Below are positions 2,490 through 19,834 of a DNA stretch of 64,000 nt, in pieces. Both the position numbers and the translations under genes were made by a program. Source of the stretch: Deltaproteobacteria bacterium (GTDB taxonomy: Bacteria > Myxococcota > Myxococcia > Myxococcales > 40CM-4-68-19); assembly GCA_025358085.1 (NCBI GenBank), contig JANYKT010000058.1, forward strand, positions 7,744-71,743, in the 5' to 3' direction. Positions within the stretch are counted from its first letter, which is position 1; each line of letters begins with the position of its first letter. The notes under the pieces were generated by a model, which saw only the letters and a list, made by a program, of their open reading frames with translations, did no database searches and was not told the origin of the DNA.

Positions 2490-3932
2490 ATGGGAGGCAC
2501 TTCAGTGGCCCAGGCACCGATTCAATATGACGTCGCGATCATCGGCGCAGGACCGGGCGGGTATGTCGCCGCCATCCGGGCCGGGCAGCTGGGCCTCAAA
2601 GTCGTGGTGATTGAAAAGGACGAACGGCTGGGCGGCACCTGCCTCCTTCGCGGCTGCATCCCCACCAAATGCCTGCTGCACTCGGCCGCCGTTCTGGAGG
2701 AGGCCCGCGACGGCGCCGAGCATGGGGTCATCGCCGAGAACGTGCGCATCGACATGCCCGGCGTGAACAAGCGCAAGGACAAGGTCGTCGCCAAGAATGC
2801 AAAAGGCGTCGAGTTCCTCTTTCGCAAGAACAAAGTCGATCGGCTACACGGCCACGCGCGCATCGCGGGACCGGGCAAGATCTCCGTCAGCGGCGGGTCT
2901 TCGAAAGAAGTCTCGGTCGAAGCGAAGCACATCGTCCTCGCCACCGGCAGCGCGCCGCGGGTGATTCCGGGCATCCAGGTCGACGGCAGGCAAGTCGTTA
3001 CCAGCGATGAGCTGCTGAAGAATGATGTAGTCCCCAAGCGCCTGATCGTGCTGGGCGCCGGCGCGGTGGGCGTGGAGTTCGCCTCGGTCTACAGACGCTT
3101 CGGAAGCGAGGTCACCATCGTCGAGATGCTGCCGCACCTGGTGCCGCTCGAGGACGTGGACATCTCGACCGAGTTCGAGAAAGCCATGCGGAGGCGCGGC
3201 ATCAAGGGCCTGACCAGCGCGAAGCTGGAAAAAGTCGAGGTCGCCGGCGGCCTGGTCAAGGCCACGGTGACTACATCGAAAGGCAGCGAGGTCCTCGAGG
3301 CGGAAATGTTCCTCTGTGCCGTGGGCCGGCGGCCGGTCTCCGAAAATCTGGACTTGGAAAAATTTCCCAAGGTCAAGGTCGAGCGCGGCTACGTGGTGGT
3401 CGATCAGAAGACCATGCTCACCGGCGAAGAGTGGCTGTCGGCCATCGGCGACGTCGTCGCGGTGCCGGGCCGCCCGCACCCGCAGCTCGCGCACCTGGCG
3501 TCGGCCGAGGGCATCTTCGTCATCGAGCGGCTCGCGGGGCTGAAGCCGCACCCGATCAATCTCGATCTCGTCCCGGGCGCGACCTACTCCGACCCGGAGG
3601 TGGCGTCGGTCGGGCTGACCGAAAAAGCGGCGCGCGAGAAGGGTTATCAGGTCAAGATTGGCGTCTTCCCGTTCTCCGCCAATTCAAAGGGCATGATCCT
3701 CGGCACCAGCGAAGGCATGGTGAAGATCGTCGCCGAGGAGAAGTACGACGAGGTGCTCGGCGTGCACATCGTCGGCCCAGCGGCGACCGAGCTGATTGCC
3801 GAAGCGTGCGCGCTCCTGCGGCTGGAGGCCACCAGCGAAGAGATGATGCACGTCATACGGCCGCACCCGACGCTGAGCGAGGCGCTCACCGAAGCGTCCG
3901 AGGCAGTGCGCGGAAAGTCCATGCATATCTGA
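2490..3932 (+). CDS. lpdA: Dihydrolipoyl dehydrogenase (E3)
   Basis: YDVAIIGAGPGGYVAAIRAGQLG FAD-binding motif, redox-active CLLRGCIPTK, C-terminal HPTLSEAL. The start may be the GTG at 2505. Confidence 0.9.
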   Translation: MGGTSVAQAPIQYDVAIIGAGPGGYVAAIRAGQLGLKVVVIEKDERLGGTCLLRGCIPTKCLLHSAAVLEEARDGAEHGVIAENVRIDMPGVNKRKDKVVAKNAKGVEFLFRKNKVDRLHGHARIAGPGKISVSGGSSKEVSVEAKHIVLATGSAPRVIPGIQVDGRQVVTSDELLKNDVVPKRLIVLGAGAVGVEFASVYRRFGSEVTIVEMLPHLVPLEDVDISTEFEKAMRRRGIKGLTSAKLEKVEVAGGLVKATVTTSKGSEVLEAEMFLCAVGRRPVSENLDLEKFPKVKVERGYVVVDQKTMLTGEEWLSAIGDVVAVPGRPHPQLAHLASAEGIFVIERLAGLKPHPINLDLVPGATYSDPEVASVGLTEKAAREKGYQVKIGVFPFSANSKGMILGTSEGMVKIVAEEKYDEVLGVHIVGPAATELIAEACALLRLEATSEEMMHVIRPHPTLSEALTEASEAVRGKSMHI

Positions 3933-6430: not shown

Positions 6431-7372
6431 ATGGGCCAGGGATTGATCCAGCTCGGGGGGACTCCGGTCGCGGCAGGCTGCGGCCCCGTGCGCAGGCGCG
6501 ACCCCAAACCCGACTGGCTGAAGGTCAAGATGCCAGGCGGCGGCCGCTATGAGCAGGTCAAACAGACTCTCCGCGAGCTCAACCTGGTCACCGTCTGCGA
6601 GGAGGCCAGCTGCCCCAATGTCGGCGAGTGCTGGGGCTCGGGCACCGCGACCGTCATGCTCATGGGCGACGTCTGCACGCGTGGCTGCCGCTTCTGCGAC
6701 GTCAGCTCGGGCACGCCGGGGCCGCTCGACCCGCTGGAGCCGCGGCACCTGGCCGAAGCGGTCTCGCGACTGGGGCTCGACTACCTTGTAGTCACCTCGG
6801 TCAATCGCGACGAGCTTGCGGATGGCGGCGCAGCTCACTTCGCCACCGCCATCGCCGAGCTGCGCCGCGCGGCGCCGCGCACGCTGGTCGAGGTGCTGAC
6901 GCCGGACTTCCAGGGGCGCTCGTTCGCGCTGGATATGATCATCGAAGCCGAACCGGCCGTCGCCGCCCACAACCTCGAGACGGTGCAGCGCCTGACCCCG
7001 CGGGTCCGCGACCGGCGCGCCTCGTACCAGCAGTCGCTCGAGGTGCTCGCTTATTACAAGGCCGGCGGAATGCGGACCAAGAGCTCCATCATGCTCGGGC
7101 TCGGCGAGACCCGCGAAGAGGTGCTGCAGGCCATGCAGGACCTGCGCGCGGTGGGCTGCGACATCCTCACGCTCGGGCAGTATTTGCGCCCCACCGACAA
7201 GCACCTCGCGGTCGAGGAGTTCGTCCGGCCGGAGGTCTTCCAGCAGCTTGAGCAGGACGGCCTCGGGCTCGGCTTCAAGTTCGTGGCCGCAGGGCCGCTG
7301 GTGCGTTCGTCCTACAAGGCCGGCGAATTCTTCATCCGCAACTGGGTCGAGTCGGCCCGCGCCGTCGGTTAA
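6431..7372 (+). CDS. lipA: Lipoyl synthase
   Basis: CEEASCPNVGECW and CTRGCRFC radical-SAM/auxiliary cluster motifs; KPDWLKVK N-terminus. Confidence 0.9.
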   Translation: MGQGLIQLGGTPVAAGCGPVRRRDPKPDWLKVKMPGGGRYEQVKQTLRELNLVTVCEEASCPNVGECWGSGTATVMLMGDVCTRGCRFCDVSSGTPGPLDPLEPRHLAEAVSRLGLDYLVVTSVNRDELADGGAAHFATAIAELRRAAPRTLVEVLTPDFQGRSFALDMIIEAEPAVAAHNLETVQRLTPRVRDRRASYQQSLEVLAYYKAGGMRTKSSIMLGLGETREEVLQAMQDLRAVGCDILTLGQYLRPTDKHLAVEEFVRPEVFQQLEQDGLGLGFKFVAAGPLVRSSYKAGEFFIRNWVESARAVG

Positions 7373-7385
7373 CAAAATTACCGAA

Positions 7386-8360
7386 ATGCCCATCAACAAT
7401 ATCATCCAGGCGGTCAACGACGCCCTGCGCATCGAGATGCGCCGCGACCCGCGCGTGGTCGTGCTCGGCGAGGACGTCGGCAAGTTCGGCGGCGTCTTCC
7501 GCGCCACCGCTGGCCTCTACGAGGAGTTCGGCGAGGACCGGGTCATCGACACGCCGCTCGCCGAGGCGGGCATCATCGGCGCCGCCATCGGCATGGCCAT
7601 GTACGGCTTGCGGCCCGTCCCCGAGATCCAGTTCAGCGACTTCATCTTCCCTGCCTTCGACCAGATCGTTAATGAATTGGCAAAGCTTCGTTATCGAAGC
7701 GGCGGCCAGTACACCGCGCCGGTCGTCATCCGCACGCCGGTGGGCGGCGGCATCAAGGGCGGGCACTATCACTCGCAGTCGCCCGAGGCGCTCTTCATCC
7801 ACACGCCCGGCTTGCAAGTGGTCTGTCCGTCCAACCCGCACGACGCCAAGGGGCTCTTGCTCTCGGCGCTTCGAGGGGACGATCCGGTGCTCTTCATGGA
7901 GCCGAAGCGCGTGTACCGCGCGTCGAAAGGCGAAGTTCCCGAAGGTGACTACACCATCCCTCTGGGCGTGCTGCGGGTAGCGCGCGAGGGGCGCGGCCTC
8001 ACCGTGATCGCCTGGGGCGCCATGTTTCACGAAGCGCTCGCGGCGGTCACGCAGGCGCCCGAGCTGGACGCCGAGCTGCTCGATCTGCGCACGCTCTGGC
8101 CGCTCGATCTCGACGCCATCGTGCGCAGCGTGCGGAAGACCGGCCGCCTCGCCATCGTGCAGGAGGCGCCGCGGACGTGTGGTCTCGCGGCCGAGATCGC
8201 AGCGCTGGTGCAGGAGCGCTGCTTCACCTCTCTGGAGGCCCCCATCCGCCGCATCACCGGGTGGGACGTGCCGTTTCCGTACACGCTCGAAAATGATTAC
8301 CTGCCGCTCGCGCCGCGCATCCTGCAGGGACTGCGCGAGCTTTCGGCCTACCAGCCTTAA
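7386..8360 (+). CDS. 2-oxoacid dehydrogenase E1 component, beta subunit
   Basis: MPINNIIQAVNDALRIEMRRDPRVVVLGEDVG... is a typical E1-beta N-terminus; the ATG at 7386 lies inside the longer 7248..8360 ORF. Confidence 0.85.
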   Translation: MPINNIIQAVNDALRIEMRRDPRVVVLGEDVGKFGGVFRATAGLYEEFGEDRVIDTPLAEAGIIGAAIGMAMYGLRPVPEIQFSDFIFPAFDQIVNELAKLRYRSGGQYTAPVVIRTPVGGGIKGGHYHSQSPEALFIHTPGLQVVCPSNPHDAKGLLLSALRGDDPVLFMEPKRVYRASKGEVPEGDYTIPLGVLRVAREGRGLTVIAWGAMFHEALAAVTQAPELDAELLDLRTLWPLDLDAIVRSVRKTGRLAIVQEAPRTCGLAAEIAALVQERCFTSLEAPIRRITGWDVPFPYTLENDYLPLAPRILQGLRELSAYQP

Positions 8361-8372
8361 GGAGCACTCCAC

Positions 8373-9734
8373 ATGGCACAATTCGAGTTCAAGCTACCGG
8401 ACATCGGCGAGGGCGTCGTCGAGGGCGAGATCGTCAAGTGGCTGGTGAAAACCGGCGACGACATCATCGAGGACCAGCCGCTCGTCGAGGTGATGACCGA
8501 TAAGGCAACGGTGACCATCCCCTCGCCGCGACGGGGCAAGGTCGTGCGGACGGTGGGCAGCGAAGGCGAGATCGCCAGGGTGCACGGGACGCTGGTGGTG
8601 CTCGAGGTCGGCGGGACCGGGCCGGATACGGCATCGCACGGGCAGCCGAGCAACGCGCAGGCGGCGCCGTCGTTGCCTGCCTCCAGTGCAGGGCAGCCAG
8701 CGCCGCTGCAGACCGCGCACGCGCCGGTGGCGGCGACTTCCGCGAGAGCTTCGGGTGCGGCGGCCGGGGCCGGCGCCTACGGTCACGCGCCTGCCGCCGA
8801 GGTCGATGCATCCGGGGCGAACGGTCAGACCAACGGCGATGGCCGTCGCGTGCTGGCCACGCCGGTCACCCGCAAGATGGCGCGAGAGTTTGGCGTTGAT
8901 CTCTCGCAGTTGCATGGGTCCGGTCCGCAAGGCCGCGTGATGAAGGCCGACCTGCTCGCGCACCAGGAGCGGCCGCAGCCGGCAGCGAGGCCAGCCGCAC
9001 CGTCCCCTGTGCCAAGCGAGGCCGACGAGGTCCGCCCCTTGCGGGGCCTGCGCAAGAGCATCGCGAAGAGCATGGTGCAGAGCCACGGCTTCGTGGTGCC
9101 GTTCACCTTCATCGAAGAGTGCGACACCGCGCGGCTTACCCAACTGCGCGAGCGTCTGAATGGGGAGTTGGTCAAGCGCGGCGAGGCGAAGCTCAGTTAC
9201 CTGCCGTTCATCACCAAGGCGCTGCTGCACGGCTTCCGCAAGTTCCCGGAGCTCAACGCGGTGATGGACGAGCAGAAGCAGGCGCTCATCGTCCGCAAGG
9301 AGTTCAACATCGGCTATGGCGCGGCCACGGACGCGGGGCTGACGGTCTTCGTCATCAAGGACGTCGCGCACAAGTCGGTGAAGGTGCTTGGCGCCGAGCT
9401 GGAGCGACTTTCGAAGGCGGCGCGCGAGAACAAGCTGCAGCTGAGCGATTTCAAGGGCTCGACCTTCACGGTGACCTCGCTGGGCCGCGATGGCGGGCTG
9501 ATGGCGACGCCGGTTGTCAATCATCCCGAGGTGGCCATTCTCGGCATCCACAAGATCAAGGAATGGGCGAAGCCCGTGCGCAACTCCGACGGAAGCGTGA
9601 GCGTGGAGATCGCCGAGCGGATGAACCTGTCCTGCTCGTTCGATCACCGCGTCATCGACGGCCACATCGGCGCGGCTTTTCTCTACGAAGTCATCCGCGC
9701 GCTGGAAGCTCCGGAGCTGCTGCTCATCGATTGA
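8373..9734 (+). CDS. Dihydrolipoamide acyltransferase (E2) of a 2-oxoacid dehydrogenase complex
   Basis: N-terminal lipoyl domain (DIGEGVVEGEIVKWLVKTGD...VMTDKATV), Ala/Pro-rich linker, catalytic DHRVIDG motif. Confidence 0.85.
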   Translation: MAQFEFKLPDIGEGVVEGEIVKWLVKTGDDIIEDQPLVEVMTDKATVTIPSPRRGKVVRTVGSEGEIARVHGTLVVLEVGGTGPDTASHGQPSNAQAAPSLPASSAGQPAPLQTAHAPVAATSARASGAAAGAGAYGHAPAAEVDASGANGQTNGDGRRVLATPVTRKMAREFGVDLSQLHGSGPQGRVMKADLLAHQERPQPAARPAAPSPVPSEADEVRPLRGLRKSIAKSMVQSHGFVVPFTFIEECDTARLTQLRERLNGELVKRGEAKLSYLPFITKALLHGFRKFPELNAVMDEQKQALIVRKEFNIGYGAATDAGLTVFVIKDVAHKSVKVLGAELERLSKAARENKLQLSDFKGSTFTVTSLGRDGGLMATPVVNHPEVAILGIHKIKEWAKPVRNSDGSVSVEIAERMNLSCSFDHRVIDGHIGAAFLYEVIRALEAPELLLID

Positions 9735-9739
9735 TCAGA

Positions 9740-10132
9740 TCAGCCGGGGATGCCGAGGCGGGCCAGCTCGGCCGGAAGCCGGCCGGTGAGCGCAAAAGCG
9801 AGCATGCGAAAGTCGCCGCGGAAGCTCCAGAGCGGGTGCTGGAATGTGGCTGGCCGGTTGTGCTCGATGAAGAAGTGGCCAATCCAGGCGAAGGCATACC
9901 CGCAGAGGAGCGCGGCCAGCACGAATCGCGGCTGCCGTGTCGCGAAGGCGTAGAGGGCGATCAAGACCGCGAGTGAAGTGCCGATGAAGTGCAACCTGCG
10001 GGTGGCCGCGCGGGCGTGCTCGCGCAGATAAAAGGGCCAGAAGTCTTCGAAGGTCTTCATTGCAATTGCCTCGTCGATGGCTTGCGTACCGAAGCCTTCG
10101 ATCAATGTTCCGCGAATGTCGAGCACCGGCAC
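9740..10132 (-). CDS. DUF962/Mpo1-like small membrane protein
   Basis: FEDFWPFYLREHARAATRRLHFIGT pattern typical of the DUF962 family; two or three TM helices. Confidence 0.5.
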   Translation of the reverse strand: MPVLDIRGTLIEGFGTQAIDEAIAMKTFEDFWPFYLREHARAATRRLHFIGTSLAVLIALYAFATRQPRFVLAALLCGYAFAWIGHFFIEHNRPATFQHPLWSFRGDFRMLAFALTGRLPAELARLGIPG

Positions 10133-10266
10133 GCCGTGGTACGCGACGCCGGCCGCGCGCGTCCGCCATCTCGCGGTCCGCCGCGGGATCCTTCTCGATG
10201 TCGCGGTCCGCGAACGTGCGGAAGGCGGTTGCGAGCTGAAGGCCCCTCCTCTACAACTGCGCGCCT

Positions 10267-11325
10267 ATGCATGCTCCCGCCATTCAGCGCGACACGTTGC
10301 TGCGCCTCTACCGCGAGATGGTCCGCCTGCGCGTGCTCGACGAGCGCATGATGACGCTGCAGCGGCAGGGTCGGGTGGGCTTCTACGGCGCTTGCACCGG
10401 CCAGGAAGCGGCCACGCTCGCGAGCGCCATTGTCCTCGAGCCCAGCGACTGGATCTTCCCGGCGTTGCGCGAGAGCGGCGCCATGCCGCTGCGCGGGTTC
10501 CCGATGGTGCCCTATCTGTGCCAGGTGTTCGGCAACTCGGGCGACGAGACGAAGGGCCGGCAGATGCCGAGCCACATGGCTTCCCGCAGCGTCAACCAGG
10601 TCTCGTGGGGCTCGTGCATCGGCACCCAGCTGCCACAGGCGGTGGGCGCGGCGATGGCGGCGAAAATCAAGGGCGACCGCACCGTCATCGCCGCTTACCT
10701 GGGCGACGGCGCCACCAGCGAGGGCGACTTTCATGTGGCGATGAACTTCGCCGGCGTCTTCAAGGCCCCGGTGGTCTTCATCTGCCAGAACAACCACTGG
10801 GCGATCAGCGTGCCGACCTCGAAGCAGACCGCGTCGGAGTCCATCGCCATCAAGGCGCAGGCCTACGGTTTCCCGGGTGTCAAGGTGGACGGCAACGACG
10901 CGGTCGCGGTCTATGAGGCGGTGCGCGCGGCGGTCGATCGCGCGCGGTCGGGCGGAGGGCCGTCGCTGGTCGAGTGCGAGACGTATCGGATTGGCGCGCA
11001 CAGCTCCAGCGACGATCCGACCCGGTATCGCGACGAGCGCGAGGTCGAGGCCTGGCGCAAGCGCGACCCCATCGAGATCCTGCGCGGCCGTCTGAACGCC
11101 ATGGGCATCTGGAGCGCGCTGGACGAGGACGCGCTGCGCGCAAGGCTTCTCTCGGAAGTCAACGCCGCCATCGCCGAAGCCGAGCAGAAGCCGGACCCGC
11201 CGCGCGAAAGCCTCTTCGACGACGTCTACTCGACGCTGCCCTGGACCCTGCGTGAGCAGCGCGAGGAGATGATGGCGGCGCCTACCGTCCCGCGGCCTGA
11301 CGCGAAGACCATCGCGGGGAAATAG
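10267..11325 (+). CDS. 2-oxoacid dehydrogenase E1 component, alpha subunit (TPP-binding)
   Basis: GDGATSEGDFHVAMNFA TPP-binding motif; YRIGAHSSSDD. Confidence 0.85.
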   Translation: MHAPAIQRDTLLRLYREMVRLRVLDERMMTLQRQGRVGFYGACTGQEAATLASAIVLEPSDWIFPALRESGAMPLRGFPMVPYLCQVFGNSGDETKGRQMPSHMASRSVNQVSWGSCIGTQLPQAVGAAMAAKIKGDRTVIAAYLGDGATSEGDFHVAMNFAGVFKAPVVFICQNNHWAISVPTSKQTASESIAIKAQAYGFPGVKVDGNDAVAVYEAVRAAVDRARSGGGPSLVECETYRIGAHSSSDDPTRYRDEREVEAWRKRDPIEILRGRLNAMGIWSALDEDALRARLLSEVNAAIAEAEQKPDPPRESLFDDVYSTLPWTLREQREEMMAAPTVPRPDAKTIAGK

Positions 11326-11332
11326 GATCCCC

Positions 11333-12445
11333 GTGCGCGAGCTGCATGTCCGCAGGCTCGGGCGGGTCGAGTACGAGGACGGTCTCGCGGCGCAGAAGGC
11401 GGTCTTCGACGCGCGCGCGGCCGGGCTGGTGCCCGATACGCTCCTGTTGCTCGAGCACCCGCGGGTGATCACGCTGGGCCGCGGGGCGCACCGCGAGAAC
11501 ATTCTTTGGGATCCCAAGCAATTGGCAGGGCGTGGCTTCGAGGTTTTCGAGACCAACCGCGGCGGTGACGTGACCTACCATGGGCCCGGGCAGGTCGTCG
11601 GCTACCCGATCCTCGATCTGAAGCCCGACCGCAAGGACGTGCGCAAGTACGTCGCCTCGGTCGAAGAGCTGATGATTCGCGTCGCCGCCGACTATGGAAT
11701 CCGCGCGGAGCGAGTCGCGGGCCGCACCGGGATCTGGGTCAGGCCGGGAGGACTGCTGGAAAGGCCCGGCAAACGCCAGGGACCCGAGGACAACGCGGGG
11801 CGCGCGGAAGGCAAGCTGGGCGCCATCGGCGTGCACATCGCGCGCTGGATCACCTCGCACGGGTTCGCCTTCAATGTCTCGACCGACCTGCGCGACTTCG
11901 ACGCCATCGTTCCGTGCGGCATCGCCGACGCGAGCGTCACGTCGCTGCAGGGCCTGCTGGGCCGCACGCCGGCGGACGTGGAGGACCGCTTCATCGCGCG
12001 CGCCGCCGAGGTCTGGGAGTCGCAGGTCTCGGAGGTGCCGTGCGAACTGCGCACCATCTCGGTCGCGATCACCGACGGACGCGGCCGGCTCCTGCTACTG
12101 CGCCGCACCCCCGAGCGCGGCGGGTTCTGGCAGATCCTCACCGGCCGCTGCGAGGCGGGCGAGAGCCCGCTGCAGACCGCGGCGCGCGAGGTCCACGAGG
12201 AGACCGGCTTCTCTCCGACGCTGGCCGAGTTGCGCGATCTCGACTACACGCACGCGTTCGCGCTGCAGCTTCCCGGTGCACCGCGGTTCGCGCGCGAGAG
12301 CGCGTTTGCGCTGCAGGTTTCGGGCGACCCGCGCCTCTCCGGCGAGCACGACGCGTTCCGCTGGTGCACCCTTGAGGAGGCGCTGCCGCTGCTGCCCTTC
12401 GCCGGCCTCCGCCGCGCCGCGCGGCTCGCGGTGGCGCGGGGCTGA
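11333..12445 (+). CDS. lipB: Octanoyltransferase LipB fused to a C-terminal NUDIX hydrolase domain
   Basis: N-terminal two thirds is LipB-like (RVEYEDGLAAQKAVFDARAAG...NRGGDVTYHGPGQVVGYP...KLGAIGVHIARWITSHGFAFNV). The C-terminus carries a Nudix box GRCEAGESPLQTAAREVHEETGF. Confidence 0.75.
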   Translation: MRELHVRRLGRVEYEDGLAAQKAVFDARAAGLVPDTLLLLEHPRVITLGRGAHRENILWDPKQLAGRGFEVFETNRGGDVTYHGPGQVVGYPILDLKPDRKDVRKYVASVEELMIRVAADYGIRAERVAGRTGIWVRPGGLLERPGKRQGPEDNAGRAEGKLGAIGVHIARWITSHGFAFNVSTDLRDFDAIVPCGIADASVTSLQGLLGRTPADVEDRFIARAAEVWESQVSEVPCELRTISVAITDGRGRLLLLRRTPERGGFWQILTGRCEAGESPLQTAAREVHEETGFSPTLAELRDLDYTHAFALQLPGAPRFARESAFALQVSGDPRLSGEHDAFRWCTLEEALPLLPFAGLRRAARLAVARG

Positions 12446-12767: not shown

Positions 12768-13367
12768 ATGAAGCCGCTACAGCTCGAGCTGCCCACCTGG
12801 GGCGGGCGCCGCAAAGGCGCCGGGCGGAAGCGCAAGGGGCCGGTGCGTCTCGTCTCGCACCGGGCGCGACCGGCACATCTGGCGCGCCATCCGCTGCACG
12901 CGGTGTGGCGGACGCGGCCCGACGTCCCCAGCCTACGCAAGCGCGCCGTGATGGAGTTGCTGCGCGTGGCCTTGGCCGCGGGAGGCTCGCGCGCGACGTT
13001 CCGGCTGGTCCATTACTCGGTCCAGGGCAATCACCTGCACCTGGTCGTCGAGGCTCACGACAAGGTGGCGCTGTCGCGCGGGATGCAGGGGCTGGCGGTG
13101 CGCATCGCGCGGGCCGTCAACACCGCCGCGGGCCGCAGGGGCCGCGTCTTTGCCGACCACTACTTCGCCCGGGAGTTGCGCACGCCGGCCGAGGTCCGCC
13201 GCGCGGTCCGCTATGTGCTGGACAACCACCTGCACCACGCGGCGGGCCGCGCTCTCCAGGCGGACTCTTGCGCCGCGCCCGTCACGGCGCCGCGGACATG
13301 GTTGCTCACCGTCGGGTGGCTGAAGAGCCGCGCCGGACCGCTGCCGGTCGCGTACTGGTCAGGCTGA
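12768..13367 (+). mobile_element. IS200/IS605-family Y1 (HUH) transposase-like gene (RAYT-like / COG1943), solitary
   Basis: HUH motif NHLHLVVEA and the catalytic Tyr region RRAVRYVLDNH. No recognisable flanking inverted repeats and no nearby tnpB. Confidence 0.55.
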
Positions 13368-14445: not shown

Positions 14446-15114
14446 TCAAGCAGACGTCTGGTCCAATCCGGGCAGTTCAATCAAGTGACCCGTGCGCTCG
14501 CGCTTGGTCATCAGATAGCCGAGGTTGTGCGGATTGACCTGCGCAGTGGAGGCAATCCGGTGGCGCACCTGGATGCCCATGTTTTCCAGGCCGGCGATCT
14601 TGAGCGGATTGTTGGTGATGAGATCGATGCTGCGCACGCCCAGCTGCTTCAGCATGCAGGCTGCAATGTCGTACCGGCGCAGGTCGTCAGGGAAGCCGAG
14701 CTGGCGATTGGCTTCGTAAGTGTCGGCGCCGCGCGCCTGCAGCGCATAAGCGCGAATCTTGTTGCCAAGGCCGATGCCGCGGCCTTCCTGCCGCAGGTAG
14801 ATGACGGCGCCGCGCTCGCTCTTGCCGACCAGATCCAGAGCGTGCTCGAGCTGCTCTCGGCAGTCGCACTTCAGGCTGCCGAAGATCTCACTGGTCAAGC
14901 ACTCGCTGTGGACGCGCACTGGCACGCCTTCCTGACCCTGGAGGTCTCCCTTGACGGCAACCACGTGCTCCTTGTCCGTGCCCTTCTCGCGAAAGACCAT
15001 CGCGCGCAGCGGGCCATGGCGTGTCGGCAGCGGCGCTTCGGCATAGAGCGAAACGAGCGTGTCATTCGCGGCAGGAACACTGTGTAGAAAGGCGCGGGCC
15101 TGATCGAGAGCCAT
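14446..15114 (-). CDS. ribA: GTP cyclohydrolase II (RibA-type, single domain)
   Basis: VHSECLTSEIFGSLKCDCREQLE and YLRQEGRGIGLGNKIRAYALQ motifs. ATG at 15112-15114 is preceded by a CAGGAG RBS. Confidence 0.8.
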   Translation of the reverse strand: MALDQARAFLHSVPAANDTLVSLYAEAPLPTRHGPLRAMVFREKGTDKEHVVAVKGDLQGQEGVPVRVHSECLTSEIFGSLKCDCREQLEHALDLVGKSERGAVIYLRQEGRGIGLGNKIRAYALQARGADTYEANRQLGFPDDLRRYDIAACMLKQLGVRSIDLITNNPLKIAGLENMGIQVRHRIASTAQVNPHNLGYLMTKRERTGHLIELPGLDQTSA

Positions 15115-15232: not shown

Positions 15233-15595
15233 ATGCATCAGATAGAGGCCGAATTTACCTTCGCCGCCGCGCACCGCCTGCCGCGCTACCAGGGCAAGTG
15301 CTTCAACCTGCACGGCCACAACTACCGCTTTCGTGTCTCGCTGCGGGGCGAGCCTGACGCGCACTCGGGGATCTTCGTGGACTTCGGCGATGTCGAGAAG
15401 GCAGTCAAAGCCAACATCCTCGATCAGTGTGACCACACGAACCTCAATGACTTTATCGGGAATCCGACGGCCGAGAATCTCGCCAGCTGGATATGGGAGC
15501 GGCTCGACGGCAAGCTGCCTGGCCTCGCCGAAGTGCGGCTCTGGGAGATCCCCACCAGCTGCGTCGTCTACCGTGGACCGCAGGGAAAATTCTGA
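15233..15595 (+). CDS. 6-pyruvoyl-tetrahydropterin synthase family protein (PTPS/QueD-like)
   Basis: CFNLHGHNY (CxxxHGH) catalytic motif and EAEFTFAAAHRLP; AGGAGA RBS. Its stop overlaps the folE start (TGATG). Confidence 0.8.
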   Translation: MHQIEAEFTFAAAHRLPRYQGKCFNLHGHNYRFRVSLRGEPDAHSGIFVDFGDVEKAVKANILDQCDHTNLNDFIGNPTAENLASWIWERLDGKLPGLAEVRLWEIPTSCVVYRGPQGKF

Positions 15596-16182
15596 TGCTT
15601 CTCGACCGCAAAGCGCGGCCGCCGAACCGCGCCGCCATGGAGAAGGCGGTCGCGGACCTGCTTGAAGCGAGTGGCGCCGAGTTGGACGCCGAGACGCGGG
15701 ACACGCCGGGACGCGTGGCCAAGGCCTTCGCGGAAGATCTGCTGGACGGCTACGGGCAGGATCCCGTCGCGGCGCTCGCGAGTTCGCTGGTGCCAGCGCC
15801 GCGCAAGGGCGAGCTCGTGATTGCCTCACAGCTGGACTTTCACTCGATGTGTCCACATCACCTGCTTCCGTACAAAGGCACCGCGGCGGTGGGCTACCTC
15901 GCGGACGCGCACCTGGTCGGCTTCGGCAAGATCGCCGAGGCGGTCGACGCGCTGTCGCACCGGCTCATCCTGCAGGAGACGCTGGTGCATCGCCTCTGCG
16001 AGGCCGTGATGACGGCGCTGCAGCCGCTGGGCGCGGGCGTGGTGATCACCGCCGAGCACGGCTGCATGCAGGTGCGCGGGCCGATGCGCCGGCAGAGCCG
16101 CATCACGGTCGAGGCCTGGGCGGGCGCCTTCGAGCACGACGCCGAGTTGCGCAGCTCGCTGGCGCGCCGGGCCGGGGGATGA
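15595..16182 (+). CDS. folE: GTP cyclohydrolase I
   Basis: QLDFHSMCPHHLLPY...GYLADAHLVGFGKIAEAVD...QETL... is the FolE signature. Confidence 0.85.
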   Translation: MLLDRKARPPNRAAMEKAVADLLEASGAELDAETRDTPGRVAKAFAEDLLDGYGQDPVAALASSLVPAPRKGELVIASQLDFHSMCPHHLLPYKGTAAVGYLADAHLVGFGKIAEAVDALSHRLILQETLVHRLCEAVMTALQPLGAGVVITAEHGCMQVRGPMRRQSRITVEAWAGAFEHDAELRSSLARRAGG

Positions 16183-16841
16183 GCGCGCTGCGCGGGAAGG
16201 TCTGCGTGGTGACGGGCGCGTCGCGCGGTATCGGCCTCGCCATCGCGGAGTTGCTTGCAGCCGAGGGAGCGCGCCTGTCGGTCTGTGCCGTGCAAAAGCC
16301 GCCGCGGTTTGGCGAACACGCCGCCCGCTGCGACGTGGCGGACGCGAAGGAGGTCGAAAGCTTCTTCGCCGAGTCGCAGAGGCGGCTGGGTCCGCCGGAC
16401 ATTCTGGTCATCAACGCTGGTGTCCTCGAGCGCGGCGCGTTGGACGAACTCTCGGAGCGGCAGTGGGACCGGGTGCTCGGCGTCAACCTGAAAGGCGCCT
16501 TCCTCTGCGCGCGCGCCGTCTGGCCGTCGATGCGGTCGCGCAAGAGCGGCCGCATCATCGCCCTGGGGTCGATCAGCGGCACGCTCGGCACCAGTTTCGC
16601 GTCGGCTTACAACGCCTCGAAGTGGGGCCTGACGGGCTTCATCAAGTCCATCGCCGAGGAGGGCCGTGACCACGGCATCTTTTGCGCGACGGTGCTGCCG
16701 GGCTCGACCGACACCGATATGCTTCGCCAGACAACGTTCGCACCGCAGATGACGCCGCTCGATGTGGCGGGCGTGGTGCGCTACCTCGCTGCCGACGCGC
16801 CGATGGCGATGACCGGCAGCGCAGTGGAGGTCTTCGGGTGA
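16179..16841 (+). CDS. Short-chain dehydrogenase/reductase (candidate pteridine or sepiapterin reductase by context)
   Basis: TGASRGIGLAIA Rossmann motif and the YNASK catalytic motif. The start overlaps the folE stop (ATGA). Confidence 0.8.
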   Translation: MSALRGKVCVVTGASRGIGLAIAELLAAEGARLSVCAVQKPPRFGEHAARCDVADAKEVESFFAESQRRLGPPDILVINAGVLERGALDELSERQWDRVLGVNLKGAFLCARAVWPSMRSRKSGRIIALGSISGTLGTSFASAYNASKWGLTGFIKSIAEEGRDHGIFCATVLPGSTDTDMLRQTTFAPQMTPLDVAGVVRYLAADAPMAMTGSAVEVFG

Positions 16842-18190
16842 TGAGTCTTGCAGGTGAGCTGAAGGCGCTGGACCTCGACGCGCAGGAGCCGACCGAGGCG
16901 TACGCGCGCGACGAGAGCGGCACCGGCGACTACCCGCCGCAAGCGGTGGTGCTGGCGCATTCAGTCCTCGACGTGCAGAAGGTTCTGCGTTTTTCCAAAC
17001 ATCGCAAGATCCCGGTGGTGCCCCGCGGCGGCGGCTCCGGCAAGAGCGGCGGCGCTTTGGCGGAGCGCGGCGGCATCGTGCTTTCCCTCGAGAAGATGAA
17101 TCGCATCGTCGAGATTTCGCGGCCCGACATGGTCTGCGTCGTCGAGCCCGGCGTGATCTTGCAGGACTTGCAAGTCGCGGTTGAAGAGCAGGGCTTGTTC
17201 TACCCGCCTGACCCGAACTCGCAGGCCTGGTGCACGCTGGGCGGCAACCTTGCGCACAACGCCGGCGGCCCGCGCGCGCTCAAGTACGGCGTCACCCGCG
17301 ACTACGTGCTGGGCGTCGAGGCGGTGCTGCCGACCGGAGAATTCATTCATGCTGGCCACCGCAGCTGGAAAGGCGTCGCCGGCTACGACATCACCCAGCT
17401 GCTGGTCGGCAGCGAAGGCACGCTCGGGGTGATCACGCAGGCGACGCTCAAGCTCATTCCGCTCCCGCGCCGCGTGGCGACCATGCTGGCCTTCTTTCCC
17501 GACGAGGCGAAGGCGGCGCTGGGCGTGCAGAAGATCTTCGGCGCCGGCCTCCTGCCGCGCACCTGCGAGCTGATGGACGGACCGACCATGCGCGCCCTGA
17601 AAGGCAAGGCTCCGTTCCAATTCCCCGATGAGGTCGGCGGCGCGCTCATCGTCGAGCACGACGGGAACGGCGACGGCGTGATGGAGGACCTCGCGCAATC
17701 GGGGGAGATGTGCATGGAAGCCGGGGCCATCGACGTGGTCGCGGCGCAGGACGAATCACAGCGTCGGCGCATCTGGGAGACGCGGCGGATGATCTCGGTG
17801 GCCATGAGCTCGATCCGGCCGCACAAGATCAGCGAGGACGTAGCGGTGCCGCGCGGGCGGCTGGTCGACCTGATCAATGCGGTGCGCGAGATCGGTGCCC
17901 GGTACAGCCTGGAAACAGCCTGCTACGGGCACGCGGGCGACGGCAACATGCACGTGAACTTGCTCTTCGCCAGCGCCGAGGAGCGCGTCCGCGGGCAGAA
18001 GGCGGTCGACGAGGTGATCCAGACCGCGATCGATTTCGGCGGCACCATCACCGGAGAACACGGCGTGGGCCTCGCGAAGCGTGCTTTCCTGGCGCGCGAG
18101 CAGGGCCCGGATCTGATCGCGCTGCAGAAGCGGGTCAAGCGCGCCTTCGATCCTGAAGACCTGTTGAATCCGGGAAAGATCTTTCCATGA
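16841..18190 (+). CDS. FAD-linked oxidase (GlcD / D-lactate dehydrogenase family, FAD_binding_4)
   Basis: VVPRGGGSGKSGGAL FAD-binding region and the C-terminal HVNLL...GTITGEHGVG motif. The start overlaps the SDR stop. Confidence 0.8.
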   Translation: MSLAGELKALDLDAQEPTEAYARDESGTGDYPPQAVVLAHSVLDVQKVLRFSKHRKIPVVPRGGGSGKSGGALAERGGIVLSLEKMNRIVEISRPDMVCVVEPGVILQDLQVAVEEQGLFYPPDPNSQAWCTLGGNLAHNAGGPRALKYGVTRDYVLGVEAVLPTGEFIHAGHRSWKGVAGYDITQLLVGSEGTLGVITQATLKLIPLPRRVATMLAFFPDEAKAALGVQKIFGAGLLPRTCELMDGPTMRALKGKAPFQFPDEVGGALIVEHDGNGDGVMEDLAQSGEMCMEAGAIDVVAAQDESQRRRIWETRRMISVAMSSIRPHKISEDVAVPRGRLVDLINAVREIGARYSLETACYGHAGDGNMHVNLLFASAEERVRGQKAVDEVIQTAIDFGGTITGEHGVGLAKRAFLAREQGPDLIALQKRVKRAFDPEDLLNPGKIFP

Positions 18191-18753
18191 GCGCACCCTG
18201 TTCCTTTCCTGCGCGGAGACGTTTGGCCGCGCCCAAGCTCGCTGCCGGCTGTCTCTTTGCGTTGGTGCTCGCCTGCGATATCCCGCTGCACGCTGGCCGC
18301 GGCAGCGCGCCGCGCGGCATCGACCAGCAGGCGCTACCGGTGGGCGCCAGAGCCCAGCCGGTGGGCCTCGGCGCTCACCTTCCGGCCGCGGTGGTTTTCT
18401 ACCGCGGCCATTGGTGACCCTATTGCAAGAGGCAGCTCGGTGAGCTGCAAAAAGCACTCCCGGAATTCACCAAACGCCACGCCTTTCTGGTCGCGGTGTC
18501 CGTCGATGACCCGAGCACTTCGCGCAGCCTGGCCGAGACGTTGGGCCTCCGCTTCCCCATCGTCTCCGACGAGCAGCGCAAGCTGATCCGCAAGTACGGC
18601 GTGCTCGATGCCGAGAACGACATCGCCTGGCCTGCCCTTTTCGTGATCGGCCGCGATGGGAAAGTCGCTTGGCGCTCCCTCGCGGATTCGCCTTCGAAGC
18701 GCGCTGGCGTCAACGAAATCCTGGCGGCGCTGGATGGGCTGGTCGCGCCTTGA
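18187..18753 (+). CDS. Redoxin (AhpC/TSA-fold) lipoprotein with an in-frame TGA at the first position of its CxxC motif; candidate selenoprotein (U-P-Y-C)
   Basis: ORFs 18187..18417 and 18496..18753 are in the same frame and separated only by the TGA at 18415-18417. Together they read ...AAVVFYRGHW[TGA]PYCKRQLGELQKALPEF...LRFPIVSDEQRKL...FVIGRDGKVAW. The N-terminus has a lipobox (LFALVLAC). The start overlaps the FAD-oxidase stop. Confidence 0.55.
18432..18448 (+). ncRNA. Candidate bacterial SECIS hairpin (GCAGCUC-GGU-GAGCUGC) beginning 15 nt after the TGA
   Basis: Perfect 7-bp stem with a GGU apical loop. The loop G lies about 22 nt downstream of the UGA, within the bacterial SECIS window, and the loop resembles the GGUC loop of E. 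coli fdhF. Confidence 0.5.
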
Positions 18754-18805
18754 CCGGCGACGCGTGCTGCTCTACGGTCCGCCGCCCTTGGACCAGCCCC
18801 ACCCG

Positions 18806-19429
18806 ATGATGCCCGAGGCTCCCCGCACCGACGGAGAGCCCACCGACCGCGAGCTGGTCGAGCTTTCGCAGAAGGGCGACGGCGCTGCGTTTGCGCGGCT
18901 GGTGGAGCGGCACCAGCGCCAGCTCTACCGTCTGGCGCTGCGCATGACGGGCTCCGAGGCGGACGCCAACGAAGTCCTGCAGGAAGCTTTCCTCAACGCC
19001 TGGCAGAAGCTGCCGGCCTTCCGCGGTGAGTCGCAATTCTCGAGTTGGCTTTATCGGATCGCGGCCAACAGCGCGCTGATGCGGCTGCGTCGCAAGCGCC
19101 GCGCGCCCGATGGGTTGCCAGACCAGCCGCTCGAACTGCAGGCGCCCAAGTTTTCGTCCGAAGGCCTCCTCGACCCGCCTCCCTACAGCGACTGGTCGCA
19201 GCGCGCCGACGAGAAGATGATGTCCAGCCAGTTGGGTGTCGCCATCGAGAAAGCGGTGCAGGAGCTTCCGGAAGACTATCGAACGGTGTTCCTCCTCAAG
19301 GATGTGGACGGTCTTTCCAACGAAGACATCGCGACCTCGCTCGACCTCACGGTGCCGGCCGTGAAGAGCCGCCTGCACCGCGCGCGCCTCGCGCTTCGAG
19401 AGAAGCTGGGAGATTTCTTTGGAGCGTGA
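18806..19429 (+). CDS. ECF-family RNA polymerase sigma factor
   Basis: Sigma-70 region 2 (NEVLQEAFLNAWQKLPAFRGESQFSSWLYRIA) and region 4 (VFLLKDVDGLSNEDIATSLDLTVPAVKSRLHRAR). ATG at 18806. Confidence 0.8.
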   Translation: MMPEAPRTDGEPTDRELVELSQKGDGAAFARLVERHQRQLYRLALRMTGSEADANEVLQEAFLNAWQKLPAFRGESQFSSWLYRIAANSALMRLRRKRRAPDGLPDQPLELQAPKFSSEGLLDPPPYSDWSQRADEKMMSSQLGVAIEKAVQELPEDYRTVFLLKDVDGLSNEDIATSLDLTVPAVKSRLHRARLALREKLGDFFGA

Positions 19430-19528: not shown

Positions 19529-19834
19529 ATGATTGAACATTGCAAGGAGTGCGTTGACCTCCTCGGGGACTACGTCGAGGGACAACTTCCTCCCGAGCAG
19601 GAGAAGGCGCTCGAGACACATCTCAGCATGTGCATGCCGTGCATCACGTTCGTGCGAACGTACAAGGCGACGCGGCGGCTCTGCCGCACGGCGCTCGCCA
19701 AAGAGATGCCGTCCGAATTGATGGGCGCTCTCTCCTCTTTCCTCGGCAAGCACGTGCCGGGGTTCAGTTGCCCGAAGTCGAAGCAGGGCCAGCCGGAAGC
19801 GGTGGCCCCCGACAGCGAGCTCAAGAAGGGCTAG
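19529..19834 (+). CDS. ZAS-type (zinc-binding, RsrA-like) anti-sigma factor, cytoplasmic
   Basis: HCKEC plus H-x3-C-x2-C (HLSMCMPC), no TM segment; immediately downstream of the ECF sigma gene. Confidence 0.6.
   Translation: MIEHCKECVDLLGDYVEGQLPPEQEKALETHLSMCMPCITFVRTYKATRRLCRTALAKEMPSELMGALSSFLGKHVPGFSCPKSKQGQPEAVAPDSELKKG

Follow-up and report, generated by a model that had tools for sequence, protein, structure and literature searches.

A peroxiredoxin-like gene of soil Myxococcota with a conserved in-frame TGA and a probable selenocysteine residue

Does the TGA codon inside a redoxin-like gene of a myxococcal genome end or disable the gene, or is it decoded as selenocysteine (Sec, U)? 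The gene lies on contig JANYKT010000058.1 of assembly GCA_025358085.1 and was analysed within a stretch of 64,000 nucleotides (64 kb, G+C content 67.6%), hereafter called the window. A first-pass annotation, made from the sequence alone, had described a reading frame open except for one TGA and followed by a hairpin resembling a selenocysteine insertion sequence (SECIS), and had proposed a selenoprotein. Translation of positions 18187-18753 on the forward strand bore out the frame: its 188 codons include a single internal stop, the TGA at 18415-18417, within ...AAVVFYRGHW(TGA)PYCKRQLGELQ..., and the gene terminates at another TGA (18751-18753). On the evidence given below, it is very likely that 18187-18753 is one genuine Sec-encoding gene, and we infer that Sec is inserted at the UGA itself.

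Continuity of the gene across the TGA

To the codon's left and right the sequence has the same coding character. The G+C content at third codon positions (GC3) was 0.78 upstream and 0.80 downstream of the TGA, and that at second positions (GC2) was 0.61 and 0.45, respectively; high GC3 combined with low GC2 is the signature of the real genes of the window, and it was found on both sides of the codon. When all the TGAs of the window were considered in six frames, this was the only sense-strand TGA with a coding signature on both sides. Since TGA is also the commonest ordinary stop codon among the genes of the window, the codon is not explained by reassignment of the genetic code. The conceptual protein, with Cys in place of U, matched the Pfam families AhpC-TSA (PF00578; E=4e-27, 95 bits against a cutoff of 26, residues 67-162) and Redoxin (E=2e-17), the Pfam matches together covering residues 67-177, so that the domain spans the internal TGA.

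Relatives for comparison came from three sources: a scan in which each species was represented by one genome, a search of metagenomes with an alignment of the subgroup, and a look-up through RNase R, which is encoded 1 kb downstream. The first of these found Cys-form homologs in many phyla, and the three closest loci all came from Myxococcota metagenome-assembled genomes (MAGs). Two of these three have TGA at the same codon, L001 (Kofleriaceae, LYRGDW(TGA)PYC) and L002 (Myxococcales, FYRGHW(TGA)PYC), and in both the homology runs on to the stop codon. The metagenome scan yielded 18 loci; all 12 that span the active-site region carry the in-frame TGA, as W(TGA)P[YF]CRxQL[GV]ELQ, and these 12 reduce to nine distinct sequences, mostly from soil, of which one is the same as L002. 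The RNase R look-up recovered close relatives with identical gene order and an 85% identical RNase R (L079, L080/L081 and L082), all of which have the TGA. It thus stands at this codon in 14 of 14 distinct TGA-form sequences (43-100% protein identity), that is, in the window and in 13 further orthologs at 43-85% protein identity: L001, L002, the soil-metagenome sequences L059-L065 and L069, and L079, L080 and L082 (L066-L068 and L070 are duplicates and were not counted as distinct). A near-identical contig from an independent assembly of the same organism (L078; JAYUNZ010000546.1 of GCA_043761225.1, 10 mismatches in 17.7 kb relative to the window) also carries the TGA.

The first-pass annotation had suggested aligning the full-length protein with Cys-containing homologs. 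In this alignment the TGA column coincided with the first Cys of the near-invariant W-C-P-Y-C of the Cys-form homologs, and the closest Cys ortholog (P0001/L077, 48% identical) has TGC at the aligned codon. The codon for the second Cys, Cys80, is TGC in all 13 codon-tabulated sequences and is invariant at the nucleotide level in all 14. When the window was compared with L079 and L082, the ratio of nonsynonymous to synonymous substitution rates (dN/dS) was 0-0.08 over 14 codons before the TGA and 0.18-0.19 over 98 codons after it, at a dS of ~0.7, which shows that the region past the TGA is under purifying selection as protein and is translated. Orthologs ending at the TGA with no conservation beyond it, which had been named as an outcome that would speak against a selenoprotein, were not what we saw.

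As the first-pass annotation had anticipated, gene callers split the locus. In GCA_043761225.1 it is recorded as two unnamed open reading frames (ORFs) of 76 and 85 aa, in close relatives as 70 and 91 aa, or as 67 aa and nothing else, and on an unrelated metagenome contig the ortholog was called as a 106-aa fragment. As a consequence, the full-length redox enzyme is lacking from protein databases, in which selenium use by soil Myxococcota is undercounted. The finding corrects the public record for GCA_043761225.1 and related metagenome assemblies, which store two unnamed fragments (76 and 85-106 aa) or one, and this correction of an annotation that cuts the gene in two is its main practical value.

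The downstream hairpin and the decoding of the UGA

The hairpin described in the first-pass annotation, a perfect 7-bp stem at 18432-18448 with SECIS-like geometry, was found as claimed. It sits within the codons for (R)-Q-L-G-E-L-(Q), starts 14 nt past the TGA and has its loop 21 nt past it (spacer 18418-18438). The published model of bacterial SECIS elements (bSECIS) calls for a loop of 3-9 nt, an upper stem of 4-16 bp, a spacing between UGA and loop of 16-37 nt, a G in either or both of the first two loop positions (G[G/U]) and a free energy no higher than -7.5 kcal/mol (PMC13188914). The hairpin agrees with the model throughout, with a 3-nt loop (G-G-U), a stem of 7 bp, a spacing of 21 nt and a folding energy of -10.1 kcal/mol for the bare 17-mer (z = -3.4).

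Ten of the 14 TGA-form sequences share all 17 nt without change. The variants comprise a GGC loop in L061 and L062, a changed nucleotide just 3' of the stem in L002, and a CUA/GUU change in L065, in which a 6-bp stem with a 5-nt AGUUG loop remains; both the GGC and the AGUUG loops also have the G required of the loop by the model. In an alignment of 339 nt (13 sequences) the hairpin was the most conserved 17-nt segment, with a mean pairwise identity of 0.965, and third-position identity reached 0.93 over codons +5 to +10, compared with 0.55 gene-wide. Its two Leu codons are CTC in 12 of 13 and CTG in 13 of 13 sequences, whereas other conserved Leu columns are split at about 5:4, and its Gly codon is GGT in 10 of 12, whereas the other conserved Gly columns of the gene prefer GGC. 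At the codon before the stem the amino acid varies (R/T/V/K/G), but the final G, which belongs to the basal pair, is always kept. Paired cells made up 99% of the stem, and six of the seven stem pairs never vary. No model-type hairpin was present in any of 25 Cys-form homologs with the [YH]RGxWCPYC motif, and in the Cys ortholog L077 the equivalent stretch, CCAGCTGGTCGACCTGC, cannot form the stem. The third-position identity, the fixed codon choice and the restriction of the hairpin to TGA-form genes together suggest a constraint on the hairpin beyond coding.

We propose that the hairpin acts as a bacterial SECIS element, through which SelB-GTP with its Sec-tRNA(Sec) would be brought to a ribosome that has the UGA in its A site, and that the UGA at 18415-18417 would in this way be decoded during translation, with insertion of Sec77. 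The near-invariant 17-nt sequence GCAGCUCGGUGAGCUGC can serve as a search pattern.

Departures from the intact gene were recorded in several relatives. Two soil contigs from different samples (L069:1712-2066 and L070:1720-2068) have in common a +1 frameshift ~55 codons past the TGA, with both halves conserved at 57-59% identity to the window protein; the frameshift could be real, as a young pseudogene or a recoding event, or could be a common assembly error. In five further loci (L071:6001-6201, L072:6001-6198, L073:3193-3369, L074:400-576 and L075:1464-1640) only the last ~60-67 codons are kept, and no 5' half, TGA or hairpin was found upstream in any frame; these loci look like remnants of the gene, as would fit a loss of the selenoprotein from some lineages. 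At the contig end of a Myxococcus sp. MAG (L003:1-80) the hairpin core CAGCUCGGUGAGCUG is kept, the TGG-TGA stretch is 4 nt shorter and there is no TGA. The outermost stem pair of L003 is U-A instead of G-C, which is the sole double change seen at any stem pair, and the deviation, lying in the first 60 nt of the contig, may be an assembly artefact.

We also searched for the machinery of Sec insertion. ARAGORN and Rfam revealed no tRNA-Sec, and no tRNA at all, in the window, and ARAGORN detected only tRNA-Leu and tRNA-Ala in 20 ortholog loci. tblastn with Escherichia coli SelA, SelB and SelD as queries gave no match in the window or in the loci of the Sec orthologs, and Sec machinery was likewise absent from Pfam and NCBIfam scans of the ~45 ORFs of the window. 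As these searches covered a small part of any genome, their outcome is uninformative rather than negative. The same tblastn search revealed a selD homolog in an alphaproteobacterial MAG (L058:12082-13006, 41% identity to E. coli SelD), ~2 kb from a distant Cys-type homolog, a proximity that may be coincidental. The nearest named relatives of the RNase R of the window are from Myxococcales and 'Deltaproteobacteria' MAGs, and Sec use has a precedent in Myxococcota in Anaeromyxobacter dehalogenans, for which 11 selenoproteins were reported (PMC1794560); a literature search on Myxococcota selenoproteomes and on the assembly returned nothing specific. Decoding of UGA as Sec is thus very probable in the uncultured lineage of the window as well as in Kofleriaceae and further Myxococcales MAGs, and this affects the reading of every other in-frame TGA in their genomes.

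Several observations weigh against a selenoprotein of this description. Folded in a context of 41-61 nt, the hairpin gains nothing over dinucleotide-shuffled sequences (z = -0.8 to -1.0), and 3.9% of the 1336 TGA trinucleotides of the window are followed by a model-type hairpin at least as good (11% by a SECIS-model hairpin of at least 6 bp). With z near -1 in context and a background of 4-11%, single-sequence folding energy was rejected as evidence, and since the hairpin is weak in a single sequence, the case rests on the comparison with relatives. Among the 14 TGA-form sequences no covariation was found in the stem, as the stem never varies, and Rfam at gathering thresholds gave no match to a SECIS family in the window. 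To these points are added the failure to find selA, selB, selD or tRNA-Sec in the 64 kb or in the flanks of the orthologs, and the decayed-looking relatives, namely the L069/L070 frameshift, the 3' remnants L071-L075 and the loss of the TGA in L003. The operon context of the gene, described below, is specific to the clade of the window; several distant orthologs have no canonical lipobox, and the motif behind the predicted export and lipidation was identified by eye.

The other accounts of the TGA fare worse when confronted with the same data. If it had arisen by nonsense mutation or through faulty sequencing or assembly, the gene would be a pseudogene or would really read TGC or TGT, and the damaged relatives (L069/L070, L071-L075 and L003), as well as the two ORFs shown by public gene callers, could be cited for this view; however, the TGA recurs in 14 distinct sequences whose samples and assemblers are independent, is found in the independent assembly L078, is followed by sequence evolving at a dN/dS of ~0.19 with dS at ~0.7, and co-occurs with a hairpin that never accompanies TGC or TGT. 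The conserved TGA effectively refutes this explanation, which we regard as barely credible. That the locus makes two products, a 76-aa lipoprotein and an independently initiated 85-aa protein (GTG at 18496), agrees with the existence of both ORFs and with their being recorded as separate proteins, but is extremely unlikely: the break would fall between beta-1 and alpha-1, at the active site of one undivided thioredoxin-fold domain, the 78 nt from the TGA to the GTG (18418-18495) are conserved as in-frame coding sequence, and the Cys-form homologs are single polypeptides. Moreover, the callers pick differing internal starts in the relatives (91 aa, 106 aa, none), and this exposes the second ORF as an artefact. 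It is also very unlikely that the UGA is recoded other than as Sec, with the hairpin stimulating near-cognate Trp or Cys read-through, or some other recoding, in a host without Sec machinery. A UGA followed by C is a leaky context, stable downstream hairpins can generally promote read-through, and no Sec machinery was seen in the window or in the ortholog flanks; yet the UGA stands where a CxxC motif has its redox-active Cys, a classic case of Sec/Cys pairing, the hairpin fits the SelB-type model with its small G-G/U loop at 21 nt, and selenoproteins of the pfam00578, UxxC type are well established, their family numbering hundreds of members. Insertion of Trp would abolish the redox motif, and for Cys a TGC codon would do, as in the Cys-form relatives.

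Active site, export and genomic setting of the predicted protein

Beyond the two Pfam matches already given, AhpC-TSA_2 matched below its gathering score and no NCBIfam model reached its cutoff, the best being that of the SelL-related redox protein NF040769 (44.4 bits against 120); the ResA model gave 42 bits against a cutoff of 170. The AlphaFold model of the closest Cys ortholog, P0001, has a mean pLDDT of 85.5 with the first ~50 residues disordered, and superposed on AhpE and Bcp4 with TM scores of 0.86-0.92 (target-normalised) and an rmsd of 1.4-2.2 A; in this model the first Cys lies directly before helix alpha-1 (106-117). Sequence alignment to the BCP/PrxQ structures 2ywn and 2cx3 placed C80 opposite the active-site Cys and U77 opposite Thr/Ser. 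Comparing FYRGHW-U-PY-C with the BCP-type FYPAAF-T-QV-C, Arg takes the place of the peroxiredoxin (Prx) Pro and Sec that of the Thr, and Pro (AWPALFVI) stands where Prx has its catalytic Arg (AKRAVFVI), so that the canonical Prx motif P-x-x-x-T/S-x-x-C(p) with its catalytic Arg is absent from the window protein. In the alignment to ResA (4nmu; E ~1e-8), U77 stands opposite the nucleophilic first Cys of the CxxC motif. The first-pass annotation had put the TGA exactly at the nucleophilic Cys of AhpC/TSA- or redoxin-fold proteins, and this holds in the thioredoxin/ResA sense of CxxC, but not in that of an AhpC/TSA Prx, where C80 corresponds to the peroxidatic Cys and the TGA to the Thr. Judged from its sequence, the protein is a 'Prx-like' redoxin with a Prx fold and a thioredoxin-type motif, and not a canonical peroxidase.

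The N-terminus, M1...K17-LAAGCLFALVLA-C30-D, ends in a lipobox (L26-V-L-A-C30, Cys codon at 18274-18276), as had been claimed; it follows the usual lipobox rule, applied by eye after PROSITE PS51257 (h-region without charged residues), and the pattern LA[VL]AC-D is conserved in L079-L082. Most distant orthologs begin with a lipobox or with a hydrophobic export or anchor segment. The product is probably tethered to the membrane on the periplasmic side, as predicted from these N-terminal features.

The predicted product would be a protein of ~19 kDa with a lipoprotein-type export signal (Cys30) and a peroxiredoxin/thioredoxin fold, in which Sec77 would cap helix alpha-1 at its N-terminal end and precede Cys80 in the motif U-P-Y-C. 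Since the Pro, Thr and Arg of Prx are absent, we expect a CxxC thiol-disulfide oxidoreductase of the ResA/TlpA kind, with a selenolate as the more reactive nucleophile. The Sec77 selenolate would attack an oxidized substrate (a disulfide, sulfenate or peroxide), Cys80 may resolve the intermediate to an intramolecular selenenylsulfide, and a reductant of the envelope would recycle the enzyme. No DsbD/CcdA or thioredoxin reductase partner adjoins the gene according to the Pfam and NCBIfam scans of the window ORFs. A pyridine-nucleotide disulfide oxidoreductase at 2490-3932 was considered as a redox partner and rejected, as it belongs to a 2-oxoacid dehydrogenase cluster.

A selenoprotein at this locus might instead be a true envelope peroxidase, similar to Prx or GPx, in which Sec77 would serve as the peroxidatic residue. 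In sequence and structure the protein matches the peroxiredoxins BCP and AhpE best, the Pfam family is AhpC-TSA, selenols react fast with peroxides, and the adjacent ECF sigma factor and ZAS-type anti-sigma factor are of a kind often tied to oxidative or thiol stress; in addition, the reduced pterins and the FAD oxidase of the upstream operon might be sources of H2O2. Against this, the catalytic Pro, Thr and Arg of Prx are replaced by R, U and P, the motif is a CxxC of the thioredoxin/ResA type, and the operon enzymes are cytoplasmic, whereas the selenoprotein carries an export signal. The published class label is 'Prx-like thiol:disulfide oxidoreductase', with the function given there as unknown (PMC13188914). 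We consider a peroxidase unlikely, while granting it a substantial minority of the probability, and favour the thiol-disulfide oxidoreductase.

The genes around the selenoprotein gene are listed in Table 1. Its place as the last of a tightly coupled five-gene operon, asserted in the first-pass annotation, is upheld by the junctions: the cistrons for PTPS, FolE, SDR, FAD oxidase and the selenoprotein overlap by 1, 4, 1 and 4 nt, the start ATG at 18187 overlapping the stop of the upstream gene (ATGA). AGGAG precedes PTPS, and there is no terminator-like site between the five cistrons. The public gene calls on contig JAYUNZ010000546.1 support the four upstream cistrons as well. PTPS, FolE and SDR make up the enzyme set of a tetrahydrobiopterin-type pterin pathway, and a gene for GTP cyclohydrolase II (RibA) at 14446-15114 on the reverse strand adjoins the operon divergently. 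The linkage to the pterin operon is kept in the window clade (L078-L082), and synteny of the operon with distant orthologs is absent; for this reason the link was not used as functional evidence for the family.

The anti-sigma factor announced next to the gene is indeed there, with a zf-HC2 domain and the H-x3-C-x2-C motif, and the ECF sigma factor gene lies upstream of it; RNase R follows the pair on the same strand. ECF/anti-sigma pairs also occur within 3 kb of the ortholog in L002/L068 (L002:12190-13484) and in L069 (L069:4825-5747), in differing orientations. This recurrence in three lineages is suggestive, and may reflect a regulatory link or the mere abundance of ECF factors in Myxococcota.

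Table 1. Features of the candidate selenoprotein locus and its neighbours (window coordinates)
Feature	Position	Strand	Basis or remark
Very likely full-length gene for a selenoprotein (188 codons, with U encoded at codon 77)	18187..18753	+	Translation, Pfam, TGA orthologs collinear to stop
In-frame TGA, read as Sec (U77), putative opening residue of U-P-Y-C redox motif	18415..18417	+	
Cys80 codon TGC, second residue of U-x-x-C, putative resolving residue	18424..18426	+	
SECIS-type mRNA hairpin, 7-bp stem GCAGCUC/GAGCUGC, loop GGU (18439-18441)	18432..18448	+	
Predicted N-terminal export signal ending in lipobox L-V-L-A-C30	18187..18276	+	Judged by eye
PTPS (6-pyruvoyl-tetrahydropterin synthase/QueD family)	15233-15595	+	Pfam/NCBIfam
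GTP cyclohydrolase I FolE	15595-16182	+	Pfam/NCBIfam
Short-chain dehydrogenase/reductase (SDR)	16179-16841	+	Pfam/NCBIfam
GlcD-like FAD-linked oxidase	16841-18190	+	Pfam/NCBIfam
ECF sigma factor	18734-19429 (start uncertain, alternative ATG near 18806)	+	Sigma70_r2, r4_2, NCBIfam
zf-HC2/ZAS-type anti-sigma factor	19529-19834	+	PF13490 4e-10, NCBIfam, HLSMCMPC (H-x3-C-x2-C)

Further upstream, a lipoate-centred cluster on the forward strand (6431-12445) comprises genes for a lipoyl synthase, for a 2-oxoacid dehydrogenase (subunits E1-beta, E2 and E1-alpha) and for a lipoate ligase of the LplA/B type fused to NUDIX, and a dihydrolipoamide-dehydrogenase-like flavoprotein is encoded at 2490-3932. 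An IS200-like Y1 transposase ORF (12768-13367, +; Y1_Tnp 2e-7) lies between the LplA/NUDIX gene and the metallo-beta-lactamase-fold gene. It occupies the same place in the 85%-identity relatives L079 and L081, suggesting that it is domesticated or REP-associated (RAYT-like) and not an active insertion.

Comparison with known selenoproteins and redoxins

Selenoproteins of the 'Prx-like thiol:disulfide oxidoreductase' type (pfam00578, UxxC) were predicted in 2004 (Kryukov & Gladyshev). The Sargasso Sea survey yielded 22 of them and the GOS survey 225 ('Prx-like 1'), alongside thousands of Cys homologs. The UxxC Prx-like proteins rank among the most abundant known bacterial selenoprotein families. 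Related proteins are the UxxS form of the cd02970 'peroxiredoxin-like family', a UxxC form of the Redoxin family and the eukaryotic SelL, with UxxU (PMC13188914).

With Prx-like 1 (family representative WP_010940744.1) the window protein has in common the PF00578 domain, Sec as the first residue of U-x-x-C (not TxxU), many Cys homologs and a small SECIS with G in the loop, and it was placed there by the family definition (domain and motif). It differs in its DAEN-I-[AS]-W-P motif, its N-terminal lipoprotein or export signal and its origin in soil Myxococcota, whereas the sources of Prx-like 1 are marine or anaerobic delta-proteobacterial. Among the 125 detectable homologs none is annotated as a selenoprotein and none comes from Geobacter; both absences point to a separate sequence subgroup.

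The cd02970 group (PRX_like2) and SelL are close in another respect, as the named Cys homologs are the NCBI 'peroxiredoxin-like family protein' and the best NCBIfam model is the SelL-related one. The window protein has UxxC, in contrast to UxxS in cd02970 and UxxU in SelL. As in the cd02970 group, its CxxC-type motif is carried by a Prx scaffold, with the second Cys at the peroxidatic position and the Prx triad missing.

Sec-Prx (PxxxTxxU) has the same fold and Pfam family, and both are bacterial selenoproteins. In Sec-Prx, however, Sec takes the place of the peroxidatic Cys (TxxU), while in the window protein it takes that of the Thr three residues earlier and the peroxidatic Cys is kept; moreover, the active-site Pro and Arg are absent from the window protein.

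ResA, TlpA and CcmG resemble the predicted product as membrane-tethered thioredoxin folds with W-C-x-x-C opening helix alpha-1, but similarity to them is low, the scaffold of the window protein is nearer to BCP/AhpE, and Sec stands in for Cys. No cytochrome-maturation genes were found near the gene in the Pfam and NCBIfam scans. As in the E. coli fdhF-type SECIS and the bSECIS model, the stem-loop lies in the coding sequence directly 3' of the UGA and has a small G-G/U apical loop; unlike fdhF, it has a 3-nt loop and a perfect stem without a bulged U, and is near-identical throughout the family, and its binding of SelB is putative.

A more far-reaching proposal is that these genes form a distinct, mostly Sec-containing subfamily of extracytoplasmic, lipid-anchored U-x-x-C redoxins confined to soil Myxococcota, which in the lineage of the window is translationally coupled to the pterin operon and to the ECF/ZAS pair and could have a specific role. 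We regard it as improbable; if true, it would mean selenol redox chemistry in the envelope linked to pterin metabolism or to a dedicated stress regulon, and not a generic antioxidant function. Taken together, the comparison places this very likely selenoprotein gene in the known class of Prx-like UxxC selenoproteins, to which it adds a well-defined subgroup. The understanding of Sec insertion and of Prx-like proteins is unchanged, and the finding will not surprise specialists.

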